Positions 7,360-47,608 of a stretch of DNA of 64,000 nt are shown one piece after another; the first letter of the stretch is position 1; each line of letters begins with the position of its first letter. The notes below the pieces were generated by a model, which saw only the letters and a list, made by a program, of their open reading frames with translations, was not told where the DNA came from and did not search any database. A program made the translations under genes and the position numbers. The stretch comes from an uncultured virus (IMG/VR IMGVR_UViG_3300042544_003642) (Duplodnaviria > Heunggongvirae > Uroviricota > Caudoviricetes): the IMG/VR virus record IMGVR_UViG_3300042544_003642; one strand, written 5' to 3'.

Positions 7360-7449
7360 AAGTTGACGTAATTGGGCATCTAGCCTATAAATATGACACA
7401 GGAAAAGGATAGACCTTTTCCTTCACATACTGAACAAGGGAGACTTGTT

Positions 7450-8859
7450 ATGTTCAATTACGATAGCGTCATTCTTGACGTCGACAGCTACAAATTCAGC
7501 CATCCGTGGCAACTTCCCCCAAACACCACACACATTCACAGCTACGTAGAAAGTCGCGGCGGACGCTTCCCTCGCACACTGTTTTACGGGCTCCAAATGT
7601 GGCTCAAGCGTCGGCTGGTGACTCCAGTGACCATGAGCGACGTGGACGAGGCTGCTGGATTGGCAGCCGCACACATGGTGCCTTTCCATCGGGAAGGCTG
7701 GGAATACATTGTGCGTGAGCACCAGGGCCGGTTGCCAGTAGAGATTCGAGCAGTGCCCGAAGGCATGGTGATCCCCACTCACAACGTGCTAGCCACTGTG
7801 GTGAACACCGATCCCAATGTGCCCTGGCTCACTAGCTTCCTAGAGACAGCTCTACTCCGTGCTGTTTGGTACCCCACCACAGTGGCCACACTCAGCTGGC
7901 ATGCCAAGCAGACCATTCGAGCTGCACTGGGGAAGAGCAGCGACAACCCCGAAGGCGAGCTTCTGTTTCGACTGCACGACTTTGGCGCTCGTGGCGTCAG
8001 CAGCGATGAAAGCGCTCAGCTGGGTGGCAGTGCTCACCTAGTGAACTTCCGAGGCACCGACACTGTTGCAGCCCTCCTTGCAGCCCGACGCTACTACACC
8101 GAGGCCATGGCAGGGTTTAGCATTCCGGCAGCAGAGCACAGCACCATCACCAGTTGGGGTCGCGATGGCGAAGCTGAGGCCTATGGCAACATGCTCAAGC
8201 AGTTTGCCCGGCCAGGCAGCATCCTTGCAGTGGTGAGCGACAGCTACGACATCATGAACGCGGTCAACCACATCTGGGGCGAAACACTGCGAGACCGTGT
8301 GCTAGACAGTGGGGCCACCCTTGTGATTCGTCCCGACAGCGGTGATCCAGTTGTGGTGCCAGTTGATGTGGTTGAGGCACTTGGTGAGCGGTTTGGCTAC
8401 ACCGTCAACAGCAAGGGCTACAAGGTGCTGAACAAGAGTGTGCGTGTGATCCAGGGCGATGGCATGAACATTGACAGCATCAAAACCCTGTATGACAACC
8501 TCACAGCACGCGGCTGGAGTGCAGAAAACGTGGCTGTGGGCATGGGCGGCCAACTCTTGCAAGGTATTACTCGCGACACCAATCGATTTGCGATGAAAGC
8601 TTCAGCTGCCTGTATTGATGGGGAATGGCGCGAGGTATATAAGGATCCTATTACAGACAAAGGAAAAACATCCAAGAAAGGTAAAGTTACCCTTTGGCAG
8701 TCAGGTAACCAATTTCAAACAAGCGTTAACACTCCTCTACGCGGTCTTGAGAATGGTGTGGTGTGGACCGACGTTCTGCAGACAGTCTACCGGAATGGAC
8801 GCCTTCTCATTGATCAATCATTCCAGGACATTAGAGATCGATCTGAGAAAGTCTTTTAA
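7450..8859 (+). CDS. nadV: nicotinamide phosphoribosyltransferase (NAMPT)
   Basis: DSYKFSH, LHDFGARG, SIPAAEHS, VVSDSYD, IRPDSGDP. Confidence 0.95.
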   Translation: MFNYDSVILDVDSYKFSHPWQLPPNTTHIHSYVESRGGRFPRTLFYGLQMWLKRRLVTPVTMSDVDEAAGLAAAHMVPFHREGWEYIVREHQGRLPVEIRAVPEGMVIPTHNVLATVVNTDPNVPWLTSFLETALLRAVWYPTTVATLSWHAKQTIRAALGKSSDNPEGELLFRLHDFGARGVSSDESAQLGGSAHLVNFRGTDTVAALLAARRYYTEAMAGFSIPAAEHSTITSWGRDGEAEAYGNMLKQFARPGSILAVVSDSYDIMNAVNHIWGETLRDRVLDSGATLVIRPDSGDPVVVPVDVVEALGERFGYTVNSKGYKVLNKSVRVIQGDGMNIDSIKTLYDNLTARGWSAENVAVGMGGQLLQGITRDTNRFAMKASAACIDGEWREVYKDPITDKGKTSKKGKVTLWQSGNQFQTSVNTPLRGLENGVVWTDVLQTVYRNGRLLIDQSFQDIRDRSEKVF

Positions 8860-9852
8860 TAAGACTGTCTCGTCATCGATAACAAGATACACGTCGTAGC
8901 CAGCTCTTTGCGCAGCAAAGAGCTTGGCTATATTTTGTTCTAAGAATGAATTTTTGGGACCAAACAATGTGTATTTTGACTTGACCTCAAAGATTTTGTG
9001 TTCAATCCGGAAATCTGCAAAAAAGGTTTTTTCCTTACCGTGAAACGTGTATTTGATCATTGGTCCTCTTGTGACATTCTCTATGATTCCTACAGCTTTT
9101 GCCCGTTCCAAAAAACGCCGTTCATTTGAGTATTGCCAAAATATGCCTTCTATGAAGCCTGAATTTTTAGAGTTGGATTTCCAGTGTGCTCGCTCAAACC
9201 CATTTAAGCCAAGTTCATCAATGTTCTGGGATTTGGTTTCTACCATAATACTGGCACGTCGCATAGCCTCTGTTTCACCGGTGGCTGGATTAATTACAGT
9301 ATTCATAGATTTCTGATTTTTTTCGCTTATCTTTGTGATCCATTTTTGTCCTTCTTCTGATTTAAGCCATTGTTGGTATTTTTTAGCTGTTAGCTTATGG
9401 ACATTTAATCCAGTATCGTTGTCAATTTTATTTCTTTTGATGTTGGCTACTTTTTCAGCATTTCTTTGGTGAGCGTTATTGCCATAGACATCAATATCAG
9501 ATGCTTTTGTTTTGGCTGCTTTCTGTGATGCAAGAGTCCCCAAAGTAACTCCTGGAGCTACCTCAATAAATTTTGACTTTCTGATTTTCTGTCCGGCTTG
9601 TATCCTTATATGTTCACAATTGGCACTGTTGCGATTACAACAATATTTGCTGTTACGGAATTTCCATTTGGCTGTTTTGTTGCACCCGTAATCACATAAA
9701 TGATCACCATCATACTCAATGGGTTGAATTTTCTTTTTTTGAGGCTTTCCTTTTGTAGAACAAGCGGGACATTTTGCTGGATTTTGATGACATAGGTGTT
9801 TGCCATCCTTAGTTGTATATGTAGCAGGCCCCCCGCATCGGTGGCAATTCAT
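8818..9852 (-). CDS. putative free-standing homing endonuclease (Cys/Zn-rich N-terminus, PD-(D/E)xK C-terminus)
   Basis: CxxC and CDYGC motifs; E...ADF...FEVKS; TATAAATA (9873-9880, minus strand) and AAGGAG upstream. Confidence 0.65.
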   Translation of the reverse strand: MNCHRCGGPATYTTKDGKHLCHQNPAKCPACSTKGKPQKKKIQPIEYDGDHLCDYGCNKTAKWKFRNSKYCCNRNSANCEHIRIQAGQKIRKSKFIEVAPGVTLGTLASQKAAKTKASDIDVYGNNAHQRNAEKVANIKRNKIDNDTGLNVHKLTAKKYQQWLKSEEGQKWITKISEKNQKSMNTVINPATGETEAMRRASIMVETKSQNIDELGLNGFERAHWKSNSKNSGFIEGIFWQYSNERRFLERAKAVGIIENVTRGPMIKYTFHGKEKTFFADFRIEHKIFEVKSKYTLFGPKNSFLEQNIAKLFAAQRAGYDVYLVIDDETVLLKDFLRSISNVLE

Positions 9853-9953
9853 ATTTTATTCTCCTTTTGGTTTATTTATACACTTGAAGGGCTTCACCTA
9901 TTCTTACTGCTATATAAGTGTCCGTCTTTTCTGCATGACCTACCATCAGTATA

Positions 9954-10226
9954 GACACACAGAAGTTTGCAATGAAAGCCTCTGCTGCCAAGATCAATGG
10001 TGAGTGGCAGGATGTCTACAAAGACCCTGTGACCGACAAGGGCAAGACCAGCAAGCGTGGCCGACTGATCCTCACTCGGGAACGTGGCAAGTGGGAAACA
10101 CTGCCTGTCAACAGTGGATTTGATTGGGCCAACATGCTCCTGCCAGTCTATCGAAATGGAGAGCTGCTGCGGGACTGGACCTTCCAGGAGGTTCGAGCCA
10201 ACAGTGACAAGGCTGCACTAGATTAA
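9954..10226 (+). pseudogene. second copy of the NAMPT 3' end (orphaned, probably original C-terminus)
   Basis: DTQKFAMKASAAKINGEWQDVYKDPVTDKGKTSKRG vs DTNRFAMKASAACIDGEWREVYKDPITDKGKTSKKG at 8575. Confidence 0.9.
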
Positions 10227-10350: not shown

Positions 10351-10878
10351 ATGAGCGATTTAAAAACACTTACTTGGGCAAATCACAAGCTTGCCGAAAG
10401 TACTCCTTTGATGGCTGCTATGCTTTCTGGAGATATAACACCTGAATGCTACTCTGATCTAGTGTACAGCAAACACTTGTTGTATTCTGTTATTGAAAGC
10501 AGACTTGCTTTTGAGTGTGCTGACTTGCCTCGAGCAGGCTGTGCGTTCCAGGACTGGAAAGAGATGGGGTCCCACAGTCCCACTTTACCTGCCAGTTTTT
10601 TTGAATTTCACGAGAGACTGGAAACTGTGTCTGAAAGCCAATTGTGGGCGCATGTGTATGTGCACTACCTTGCCCCGCTCTATGGTGGTCAAATCTTGAA
10701 GAAGATTTTGAGCCCTCGTTTTCCGGTAAACATGCTGAGTTTTGAAACACCCAAAGCAGCTATTGCTGAGATTCGCTACAAAACACATGCTGGTTTGGCT
10801 GAAGAGGCCAATCTCAGCTTTGAGATGACAACAAGGTACTATGACGAACTTCATCAATCTCATCAACCAAACGGCTGA
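10351..10878 (+). CDS. heme oxygenase
   Basis: LKTLTWANHKLAE, AHVYVHYLAPLYGGQIL. Confidence 0.85.
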   Translation: MSDLKTLTWANHKLAESTPLMAAMLSGDITPECYSDLVYSKHLLYSVIESRLAFECADLPRAGCAFQDWKEMGSHSPTLPASFFEFHERLETVSESQLWAHVYVHYLAPLYGGQILKKILSPRFPVNMLSFETPKAAIAEIRYKTHAGLAEEANLSFEMTTRYYDELHQSHQPNG

Positions 10879-11467
10879 TAAATTTGAGCAGCTGATCCAA
10901 AACAACACCACTCTCTTGACGGAGATACCAACAGAGGATTTTGGTTGGACCAATAACCGATGGTATAGCCAACAGTTTCGGCTTGCTCATGTGGAAAGAT
11001 TTCAGCAACCAAAATTCAGTGTGTTGCACACTGTGATCTTTCCTCACCTGACTGATCCCAGCCCTATTTTTGGGTTTGATATCATTGCCAGTGACACCAA
11101 GGCCACAGGTTTGTTTTTTGATTTCAGTCCCACTGTTGAAAGTTATGGAATCATATCTAGTCATCTATGGAGTGAGCCACGTGAAAGACCTGAATGGGGA
11201 ACAATTTTCAGCGAGCATTGGATCGCTTGCAGACCCACATATACGGAAGCTGAAACCATCAGCACATTGGCATGCACACTGTTGGAACAATATCTATCTC
11301 AGTTGGGAACAAAAACCACAACAGATGTACCTATGGTCATAAAGAAGCAAAATCAATACAGTTTGAACCAAAGACAAAACACTCATACTACTAGAGTTCT
11401 CATGAAGATACTGGGAGAAGAGCGTGGCCAGTATTTTGTGGAAAATATTTTATTCCCAACCATATGA
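10841..11467 (+). CDS. ferredoxin-dependent bilin reductase (PcyA/PcyX family)
   Basis: LHTVIFP...PIFGFD...DFSP, RPEWGTIFS, QRQNTHT, LFP; adjacent to heme oxygenase. Confidence 0.85.
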   Translation: MTNFINLINQTADKFEQLIQNNTTLLTEIPTEDFGWTNNRWYSQQFRLAHVERFQQPKFSVLHTVIFPHLTDPSPIFGFDIIASDTKATGLFFDFSPTVESYGIISSHLWSEPRERPEWGTIFSEHWIACRPTYTEAETISTLACTLLEQYLSQLGTKTTTDVPMVIKKQNQYSLNQRQNTHTTRVLMKILGEERGQYFVENILFPTI

Positions 11468-12933: not shown

Positions 12934-13180
12934 TCCACTATAAATAATCTTATGAACAAAACAGCACTGAAACCCAAAACCAAGACAAAGCTGTCAGCTT
13001 GCAGGCTCAGTAGAGTCTTGGTTTTGGGTCCGGTGTTTTTCGCACTCGTGGGATCCCCCACCTTTGGTATTGGTCCACTGCTTCTTGCAGAAAGCTGACG
13101 ATATTTCCTTCAAAATATAGAGTTGTTAAGCTTACGCCTGTTGCATACAGGCGCTATAATTTTTAGGAATGGGAAATCAA

Positions 13181-13855
13181 ATGATTCAATACATTGAAAT
13201 ACGCCAAGCTGAGGGCGGAGAAGACAGTCAACTGTTTGTTGATGATTTGGCACGTGCCTATATTCGCATGGCCAGCAAGCTGGGTTGACTCACTACTGTA
13301 GTTAAAACGGTCCCAGGCTTCTGTGTTATCAAACTAGAGGGACAAGATCTTTCACAGTGGGCACAAGAAGCAGGTGGGCATAGGATACAGAGGGTTCCAC
13401 CAACTGAAAGACGTGGAAGAGTCCATACCAGTACAGTCACAGTAGCAGTGCTAGAGTATCCTTCAGAACAAGCCATTGAAATACTTGACAAAGATCTAGT
13501 AATAGAGTGGTTTTCTGGCACTGGTCCCGGTGGTCAAAATCGAAATAAGGTAATGGCCAGTTGTAGATTGCGACACACACCAACTGGGGTAGTCGTTACC
13601 GCCCAAACAAGAAGCAGAACCACTAGCTTTGCACAAGCTAGGCAGGAATTGGAGACACGACTTCAAAACAGGTTCAAGAGCCAAGCAGCCTCTCAAACCA
13701 GCCAAGAAAGAAAACATCAGGTTGGTAGCGGCCAGCGCGGAGATAAAATACGCACTATCCAAATTCAACATGACTCAGCTGTGGACCATCGCACAGGCAA
13801 ACGTTGCACTGCGGAAAGTTATCTCAAAGGCGAAATTTACAAGCTTTGGTTGTGA
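13181..13855 (+). CDS. RF1-like peptide chain release factor with in-frame TGA at 13286-13288
   Basis: EIRQAEGGEDS...KLG*LTT...HRIQRVPPTERRGRVHTSTVTVAV (PxT motif)...GPGGQ; one frame across the TGA. Confidence 0.85.
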
Positions 13856-25366: not shown

Positions 25367-25475
25367 TTGCCATCGAGGTTGGAACAGCCTCCCAACACAC
25401 CATGAGAATGGTAACTAGCCGGCAGCAATCACCTAGCTGGTGAAGAAATCCGGAAGTGGCATCCGGCGATGGCGA
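25367..25475 (+). ncRNA. tRNA-like RNA lacking a 7-nt anticodon loop
   Basis: gccatcg/cgatggc acceptor, ccgga-7-tccgg T-arm, accat-GAGA-atggt. Confidence 0.45.
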
Positions 25476-25494: not shown

Positions 25495-25557
25495 GGGCCT
25501 GTAGCTCAACTGAATAGAGCGTGAGACTTTGGATCTCAAGGTTGAGATGGTTTACTC
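25495..25557 (+). pseudogene. truncated tRNA (Arg-like body, TTG anticodon)
   Basis: D-arm identical to tRNA-Arg at 31741; no intact T-arm or 3' acceptor strand. Confidence 0.5.
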
Positions 25558-25670
25558 CTGTCATACCTGGGGAAATTGTACGCAGATCCTACGGATCAAT
25601 GTCAGGTTGACTCCACACCCTCTTAAAGCCATGTAAATAAATGCAGACAATAAGACAGGAGCAGGGTTAT

Positions 25671-30174: not shown

Positions 30175-30525
30175 ATGCCACTACGAGACGAGGACAAGAA
30201 GCTGTGGCAACAGGTGATGCAAGGGGTTAAGCCATTAACCACTGCAACTCAAGTCCCCTTGCCTCAGTCTCTCCCAAAAACAAGTTCGTCATACCATAAT
30301 CCCCTTCACACTTGGGATTTACATGGCATGACCTTGAGCGAAGCCTATCAAAGAACTATTGAACAAGTGTCAAACAAACATTTTCCCAGTCTAACCTTCA
30401 TCACTGGCAAAAGTGGATTGATGCAACAGGAATTTTCACATTGGTTGGAGAAGAATCCAGCTGTGCAGCGTGTGGAAAGTTTGCCAGGTGGTGGGGCCTT
30501 CCGGGTGTATCTCAAGAAAAAATAA
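30175..30525 (+). CDS. Smr domain protein
   Basis: DLHGMT...A, ITGKSG, GGGAFRV. Confidence 0.85.
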   Translation: MPLRDEDKKLWQQVMQGVKPLTTATQVPLPQSLPKTSSSYHNPLHTWDLHGMTLSEAYQRTIEQVSNKHFPSLTFITGKSGLMQQEFSHWLEKNPAVQRVESLPGGGAFRVYLKKK

Positions 30526-30599
30526 GCAGGTATGGTGTAATAGGAACTCAGTGCGTTGCCAACGCACAGTCGCCGGAGCGTTACCGGCTACCTGCTCCA
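30526..30599 (+). tRNA. tRNA-Gly(GCC)
   Basis: gtgcg-ttGCCaa-cgcac; U73; CCA. Confidence 0.85.
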
Positions 30600-40466: not shown

Positions 40467-40590
40467 GGATCCGTGGTCTAATTGGATAAGGCAAGAGCCT
40501 TCCGGTCCCGCAGGTAGCATTCAAGGTTCGAATCCTTGGGGACCGCTCCTAAGCTCTTCGATGGGGGTTCGAATCCCTCCGGGTCCGCCA
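40467..40590 (+). tRNA. tRNA-Arg(CCT) with 47-nt anticodon-loop insert
   Basis: Canonical 77-nt cloverleaf after removing 40501-40547. Confidence 0.85.
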
Positions 40591-47534: not shown

Positions 47535-47608
47535 GGCCCCATAAGACAAAGGTAGTCAGCTGGACTCTAAATCCAGTGGTGTGAGTTCAAATCTCACTGG
47601 TGCCACCA
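47535..47608 (+). tRNA. amber suppressor tRNA (CTA anticodon)
   Basis: gctgga-ctCTAaa-tccagt; TTCAAAT T-loop; CCA; own promoter upstream. Confidence 0.85.

Follow-up and report, generated by a model that had tools for sequence, protein, structure and literature searches.

Conserved in-frame UGA in an RF1-like phage release factor gene, and its exchange for other candidate recoding gates across a family

How can a release factor be made from a gene that is itself interrupted by a stop codon, and what might the interruption be for? The question is raised by a gene on the plus strand of the window, by which is meant the whole 64,000-nucleotide stretch of phage DNA that was analysed. Its reading frame starts at an ATG at 13181, runs for 35 codons to a TGA at 13286-13288 and continues in the same frame, through HRIQRVPPTERRGRVHTS and then GGQ, to a terminal TGA at 13853-13855. 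There is a single internal stop, and the product read through it would be 224 aa long. The list of open reading frames covers only the last 135 aa, from a GTG (13448-13855). An in-frame TAA lies seven codons before the ATG, so the window gene has no domain 1. The start is preceded by an SD-like sequence (13165-13174, with AGGA at 13165-13168 and GGGA at 13171-13174), and an SD-like word stands ahead of the ATG in 120 of 132 scored relatives. Exact reading of the letters agrees with the sequence-only reading, which had reported an in-frame TGA inside an RF1-like gene of 224 aa without domain 1.

The window is part of a jumbo phage whose DNA is present in lake metagenomes; no RNA data set is among the listed carriers. 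Identical copies of the gene are found in four IMG/VR records of 119-310 kb, and alignment to the gene gave no other letter at 13286-13288 in the contigs of four out of four lake runs, two of which are near-identical and may be source samples. This agreement between records and runs excludes a sequencing error at the TGA.

The short factor gene has no fixed neighbours across its family. The window copy sits after a sigma-70 gene, with a 48-aa ORF (12952-13098) between the sigma gene and a terminator-like hairpin (13135-13163, plus strand), which is followed by TATAAT and a T run just 5' of the release factor start. A search for sigma-70 promoters upstream of the gene found no match, and neither did PADLOC nor a GTDB search with the single protein alone. 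Elsewhere on this part of the window are a heme oxygenase gene followed by one for a ferredoxin-dependent bilin reductase (10351-11467, plus strand), and a nicotinamide phosphoribosyltransferase gene whose 3' end is repeated at 9972-10226 with a 344-aa reverse-strand ORF between (7393-10226 in all), an arrangement suggestive of a mobile insertion with duplication of the gene's 3' end.

First searches gave 170 loci and the window; 167 cover codon 36 and 141 are distinct. Among these 141 (window included), codon 36 is TGA in 137, TGG in two, TAC in one and ATA in one, and both TGG carriers have a TGA four codons downstream. Such a prevalence of TGA is not due to chance. The query carried W at this position and would have biased the search, if at all, toward TGG carriers. 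Neither of the gene's other two Trp columns ever has TGA; each is TGG in 133 of 141 sequences. Bacterial RF1 proteins of full length, 78 in number, have W (74) or F (four) at the residue aligned to codon 36. The gene is under purifying selection on both sides of the stop, with dN/dS of 0.144 before it and 0.161 after it (26 independent pairs). The terminal stop is most often TAA (126 of the 138 complete genes; TGA in nine, including the window, TAG in three, and cut off in the remaining three of the 141). The proposal that the UGA is programmed, gene-specific and placed at the Trp position of RF1 is thus upheld by alignment of the homologues as well as by selection on either side, and the TGA at 13286-13288 is confirmed to be real, selected and specific to this gene. 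Among 120 protein database matches listed, 99 are full length with W at codon 36 and 21 start after the stop; all 99 come from contigs of at most 5.8 kb and are probably code-4 gene calls.

The genome as a whole uses the standard code, and recoding is limited to the release factor gene, as had been supposed. ORF cover in this phage rises from 0.865 with code 11 to 0.882 with code 4, and TGA is the stop of 101 of 301 ORFs. Homologs are available for 90 genes; 27 of these end in TGA, 19 of them at the point where the homolog stops. Across six phage records (216-364 kb), 30-53% of ORFs close with TGA, and the gain in cover under code 4 is only 2-4 points. Cross-genome tblastn with 19-107 shared genes per pair returned ten candidate internal stops, none convincing: eight come from one query with mixed stop types and two lie at about 30% identity. 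Genome-wide code 4 is ruled out in this phage and five relatives by ORF cover, TGA ends and tblastn together. Selenocysteine insertion was rejected as well, the codon 36 column being W or F rather than Cys and the window holding no SECIS match at Rfam cut-offs.

The read-through product has the fold and, in large part, the decoding residues of RF1. It best matches RF1 models, below their cut-off (185 against 423 bits), with prfB (105 against 370) and PrfH (52 against 167) behind; identity to bacterial RF1 is about 40%. The AlphaFold model, built from 56 sequences, has a pLDDT of 88 and aligns to ribosome-bound RF1 with a TM score of 0.86. Codons 1-35 (13181-13285) cover the first beta strand and a helix that reads U1 of the stop codon with its tip. 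Residues 4-35 align with 112-139 of Escherichia coli RF1 and 109-139 of Thermus thermophilus RF1, and G12 and D15 fall on E. coli G120 and E123, which contact U1 according to the available text of PMC5776981. The part after the stop lacks the core strand and half of the decoding site, because residues 4-35 supply them. The gate, codon 36 (13286-13288), occupies the RF1 Trp column, and codons 37-224 (13289-13852) encode the rest of domains 2-4, with a PPT recognition loop (73-75) and GGQ (117-119; G117-G118-Q119 in 136 of 137). Codon-reading motifs are of the RF1 type: Q70, P73, T75 and T83 are present, with L18 as in RF1 and QRVPPT...HTS, and PPT stands in place of the SPF motif of RF2. Other decoding-face residues are fixed in the family and depart from RF1. 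Asp occupies the E123 position in 287 of 289 members, against Glu in 78 of 78 bacterial RF1; E11 is found in 288 of 289, the middle proline of PxT (P74) in 279 and K17 in 252.

Wider searches extended the family to 549 loci, 419 of them distinct: 109 full-length RF1, 302 without a domain-1 match (20 of which have too little upstream DNA to tell) and eight unclassed, with no N-terminal match. A gate is carried by 289 of the 302 short genes, against none of the 109 full-length RF1 genes; 13 short genes are open. The gates comprise 212 in-frame stops, 76 CUU-stop cassettes of the prfB +1 frameshift type and one ambiguous case. Most in-frame gates are a single TGA (199), the others being two TGA (eight), TGA plus TAG (two) or TAG (three), and they occupy several positions in the gene, including in GenBank phages of 634-735 kb. 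At the 76 CTT-stop sites the stop is TGA in 63, TAG in 11 and TAA in two, with an SD-like word upstream in 56. In total, UGA is part of the gate in 273 of 289 gated genes and UAG in 16 relatives. The sequence-only reading had suggested a readthrough counterpart of the prfB frameshift, a comparison that proves apt in that 76 of the 302 relatives carry the prfB-type cassette itself.

A tree of 95 rows was built with the gate columns omitted. Two loci were left out, L592, whose frame breaks after an in-frame TGA, and L247, which is of the full-length type and truncated at the end of its contig. The short factors lie on one side of a branch (100/99) from eight bacterial RF1. The gate mechanism changes 14 times on this tree, and opal and amber are swapped 11 times, at least nine of these being forced by well-supported branches. 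Judged by these sequences, what the family conserves is apparently an early gate dependent on termination, and not one codon or one mechanism. Code 15 was rejected as an explanation for the UAG gates. Samples of 29-100 kb were taken from each of nine UAG-gated records; all nine have ORFs ending in TAG, and code 15 gains 0.2-5.3 points of ORF cover. There is no clear amber recoding in these records, of which G014 and G015 may be partly recoded. Frameshift-gated short factors also occur on contigs of Myxococcota and other bacterial bins (L593-L609, L619 and L642); these are perhaps prophages or mis-binned phage, and a lead to hosts.

What might help ribosomes past the UGA? The UGA-C context, put forward as the leaky signal, did not hold up: of 137 sequences, 104 have A at +4, 18 have C and 15 have G, and the context is ruled out as the readthrough signal. 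What is conserved in cis is a stem-loop 3' of the stop. Codons 37-44 and 52-60 have diverged little at synonymous sites (0.07-0.10, where the median for the gene is 0.345), and these two stretches pair with each other in a covarying family stem-loop that begins about 7 nt 3' of the UGA. In 81 non-redundant sequences, the mean fold z of the 87 nt from the stop is -2.0; five other segments give -0.3 to -0.8, and 78 bacterial RF1 genes in the same test -0.6. The helix was named from single folds and then tested by pair counts and by an unbiased diagonal scan. Among all 60,883 candidate 10-bp helices in the gene, the top 15 lie on one diagonal, +11 with +72 (U = 1), which has an excess of 0.131 (mean 0.004, sd 0.011; best elsewhere 0.071). 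In the pair counts, made on 60 of the 81 sequences picked mostly for absence of indels, 142 cells are changed on both sides, against 67+/-10 after shuffling, a count reached in 0 of 500 shuffles; 62% of cells pair in the named register, against 34-48% in slid controls. RNAalifold predicted no consensus pair from the 60-row alignment, and divergent members often retain four or fewer of the 11 outer pairs. In the window the predicted stem-loop spans 13293-13360 (plus strand) in the family's conserved register, with an outer helix of 7 bp (13293-13299/13354-13360) and an inner helix of 5 bp (13310-13314/13339-13343). This single hairpin (z -1.46, 17 of 200 shuffles folding as well) is not significant alone. 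An artefact of a protein beta-hairpin was considered and rejected on the bacterial RF1 genes, whose best excess is 0.067 and whose fold z is given above.

Readthrough is the only reading that fits the window gene, because the frame continues past the stop, both sides are under selection and RF1 has W or F at this column. On this comparative evidence, it is very probable that a fraction of ribosomes would read the conserved UGA through to give the full factor. Tryptophan would be inserted, as seems likely, by the near-cognate tRNA-Trp of the host, the tRNA expected at UGA in the part of PMC7026636 drawn on here. That the hairpin just 3' of the UGA aids readthrough is a somewhat less secure step, favoured on balance. 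The finished factor would then terminate at its own UGA gate and so limit its own synthesis; for this loop to close it would have to read UGA besides UAA and UAG, and here the odds are about even. The available text of PMC1586002 has RF1 without domain 1 staying active and losing its link to RF3, and the phage factor, likewise without domain 1, would act independently of RF3. It would supplement termination when host factors run short in infection and turn itself off when they suffice. The whole of this explanation, Trp readthrough with negative feedback, is given a probability of about 0.5.

The argument for the loop comes from the family. One factor reading all three stops would explain both the opal/amber swaps and the TAG and TAA frameshift gates, and gates that are mostly UGA and flip to UAG or UAA without other change would, by the logic used for prfB, be best accounted for by a self-repressing reader of all three. 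The family-fixed changes on the decoding face fit such reading, and an indirect change of charge, E167K, makes RF2 read all three stops (cited in PMC5776981, available text). Comparison of UAG-gated with UGA-gated members revealed no distinguishing residues, a result that also fits a gate indifferent to the specificity of the factor. Against feedback, the direct codon contacts are those of RF1, and canonical RF1 does not read UGA. It may be, and this is put forward tentatively from the sequence comparisons, that bacterial class I factors come in a third kind, carried by jumbo phages: minimal, independent of RF3, with an RF1 fold and a reach over all three stops, and autoregulated via interchangeable recoding gates, of which hairpin-stimulated UGA readthrough would be the form used by this clade.

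The strongest alternative, unlikely though less so than the others, keeps the readthrough gate and makes the product a plain UAA/UAG factor. The UGA would then sense host RF2, or total host termination capacity, and synthesis of the factor would follow when RF2 runs low, is occupied or comes under attack. This was the original proposal for the locus. In its favour, Q70, PxT, T83 and L18 are of RF1 type, as are the best family and fold matches. UGA in 273 of the 289 gates also suits it, as does TAA being the commonest phage stop in five of six genomes, TAA being common to RF1 and RF2. That the factor reads only UAA/UAG, and so merely senses RF2, is in doubt: an amber gate cannot sense RF2, 16 gates contain UAG, and at least nine independent opal/amber swaps are not explained by this reading itself. 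Moreover, an RF1-type product would not cure the UGA defect that induced it, and the fixed substitutions at stop-reading residues are left without explanation.

A second alternative, improbable in our view, is that the stop is a fixed attenuator that holds a potentially toxic factor at a low constant level with no release-factor feedback. That gate type, position and codon are interchangeable, and that ten genes have two stops in series, would suit an attenuator, and excess RF2 is toxic in Bacillus subtilis (PMC12421855, available text). Against it, a weak start would be the simpler device, yet strong SD-like sites are kept, and both mechanisms in use are in competition with release factors.

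Slightly less probable still is that a phage tRNA, either an opal suppressor or a tRNA-Trp with a Hirsh-like D arm, opens the gate as a timing switch in infection. A phage tRNA-Trp had been suggested for the window, and none was found: no CCA or UCA tRNA is among the 18 ARAGORN calls in this phage's 310-kb, 76% complete record, which does hold a CUA tRNA, and three further records of this phage have no tRNA-Trp, the one extra Rfam match having a GCC anticodon. Five of six whole records have both tmRNA and tRNA-Trp, and neither is in the sequenced 76% of this phage; in three of the five, the tRNA-Trp has U11-A24 as read from the sequences. One relative, G005, has two 77-nt UCA tRNAs, and the UAG-gated phages G014 and G020 carry CUA tRNAs, so that suppressor control is possible in those two. 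Flanks of 76 loci contain tRNA genes in 57 and tmRNA in five, with UCA tRNA in none; UCA tRNA occurs in one of six whole records; no other convincing in-frame stop was seen among the 19-107 genes shared per genome pair; and the frameshift gates require no suppressor.

A pseudogene, a sequencing error, genome-wide UGA=Trp or selenocysteine is highly improbable, since the W-bearing database proteins that could suggest TGG or code 4 come from the short contigs noted above, whereas the DNA itself has TGA in 137 of 141, TGA closes 27 of the 90 genes for which there are homologs, and the W/F column and the lack of a SECIS family in the window do not fit selenocysteine.

Several RNA features were noted alongside. 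A 74-nt CUA tRNA of amber-suppressor type (47535-47608, plus strand; ARAGORN label Pyl) is present in the window, of a phage that ends genes with TAG, and CUA tRNAs also occur in G003, G004, G014 and G020. The tRNA with the GCC anticodon (about 30526-30598, plus strand) was missed by ARAGORN and overlaps the end of the ORF 30175-30525 region. Also missed was a tRNA at 40467-40590 (plus strand; Rfam 43.8 bits) with an insert, about 47 nt long, in its anticodon loop. The insert resembles a tRNA top half, with an acceptor-like stem and T arm, and its removal leaves a CCT anticodon; the minimum-energy fold does not show the top-half arrangement. At 25368-25474 (plus strand) a skipping-rope RNA scores above the Rfam cut-off and, beyond it, about 25495-25570 resembles the 5' half of a tRNA. 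The UCA tRNAs of G005 are adjacent to each other and beside a tmRNA (G005:C1 199793-200005), and TGA is the commonest stop there (191 of 358 ORFs). In G004 a two-piece tmRNA (G004:C1 160426-161592, minus strand) starts directly at the end of the release factor gene. No alpha-type tmRNA was found on a 72-kb contig.

To our knowledge, RF2 is the only bacterial release factor under recoding control, and here is an RF1-like phage family gated in 289 of 302 short genes, with repeated switching between readthrough and prfB-type frameshifting and between UGA and UAG. If the factor does read all three stops, it would provide nature's own answer to the question why two release factors are needed in bacteria, and would allow what determines RF1/RF2 specificity to be tested directly, on a short list of named residues. 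The hairpin would add a readthrough signal of the structure-stimulated type acting on bacterial ribosomes. Standard gene calling cuts these genes short, and the family is therefore under-annotated in phage genomes. A literature search, covering few subscription papers and no supplements, brought up no account of the gated short family. Some of these genes may appear in the phage gene tables of PMC7162821 and of the Borges preprint (10.1101/2021.08.26.457843); the available parts of both, and of PMC10746230, name phage RF1/RF2 genes without internal stops, and those of PMC6514570, PMC7918605 and PMC12636597 add nothing further on the family.

Among known factors, canonical RF1 (prfA) shares the fold, PxT loop, GGQ and Q70/T83, and the phage factor differs in having no domain 1 or last helix, in its internal gate, and in E123D, the fixed E11, K17 and PPT, and a basic loop. 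PrfH/RFH, another class I factor, likewise consists of domains 2-4 and lacks domain 1 (PMC1586002 and PMC6514570, in the parts available), but the phage factor has no SXY motif and has GG in place of GP at the helix tip (motifs per PMC1586002, available text), and no rtcB neighbour lies beside it in the window, where the upstream gene is sigma-70. Readthrough at UGA in alphaviruses, furoviruses and kelch is accompanied by similar paired peaks of synonymous conservation 7-12 nt behind the stop. Those stimulators are eukaryotic and tested, whereas the phage hairpin would act on bacterial ribosomes and is predicted only (both points set against the available text of PMC3159437). Readthrough in Qbeta extends a coat protein, not a termination factor.

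The closest known systems are prfB and, as the nearest viral parallel, R726 of Mimivirus. Like prfB, the phage genes encode a class I factor and have near their start an in-frame stop in competition with termination; the CUU-stop cassette is shared by 76 relatives, and 56 of these have an SD-like word ahead of it. The CUU-UGA-C site of prfB is absent from the window gene, which reads GGT TGA CTC with the frame kept; the product here is RF1-like and without domain 1, and this clade would use in-frame readthrough with a 3' hairpin. In the available text of PMC12421855 the gate of autoregulated prfB is TGA in 98.6%, TAA in 1.4% and TAG in 0 of 8,164, a bias its authors take as a mark of RF2 autoregulation, and programmed frameshifting was not found in prfA; the phage gates, by contrast, include UAG. 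R726 of Mimivirus and Megavirus is likewise a viral class I factor with readthrough of an internal UGA, for which Trp has been proposed (PMC3521657, available text), and its serial gates are matched by ten phage genes (eight UGA+UGA, two UGA+UAG). It is an eRF1/aRF1-type factor of a eukaryotic virus, has UGA-C and needs both readthrough and a frameshift (same source, same part), whereas the phage factor has a bacterial fold and its +4 C is not conserved.
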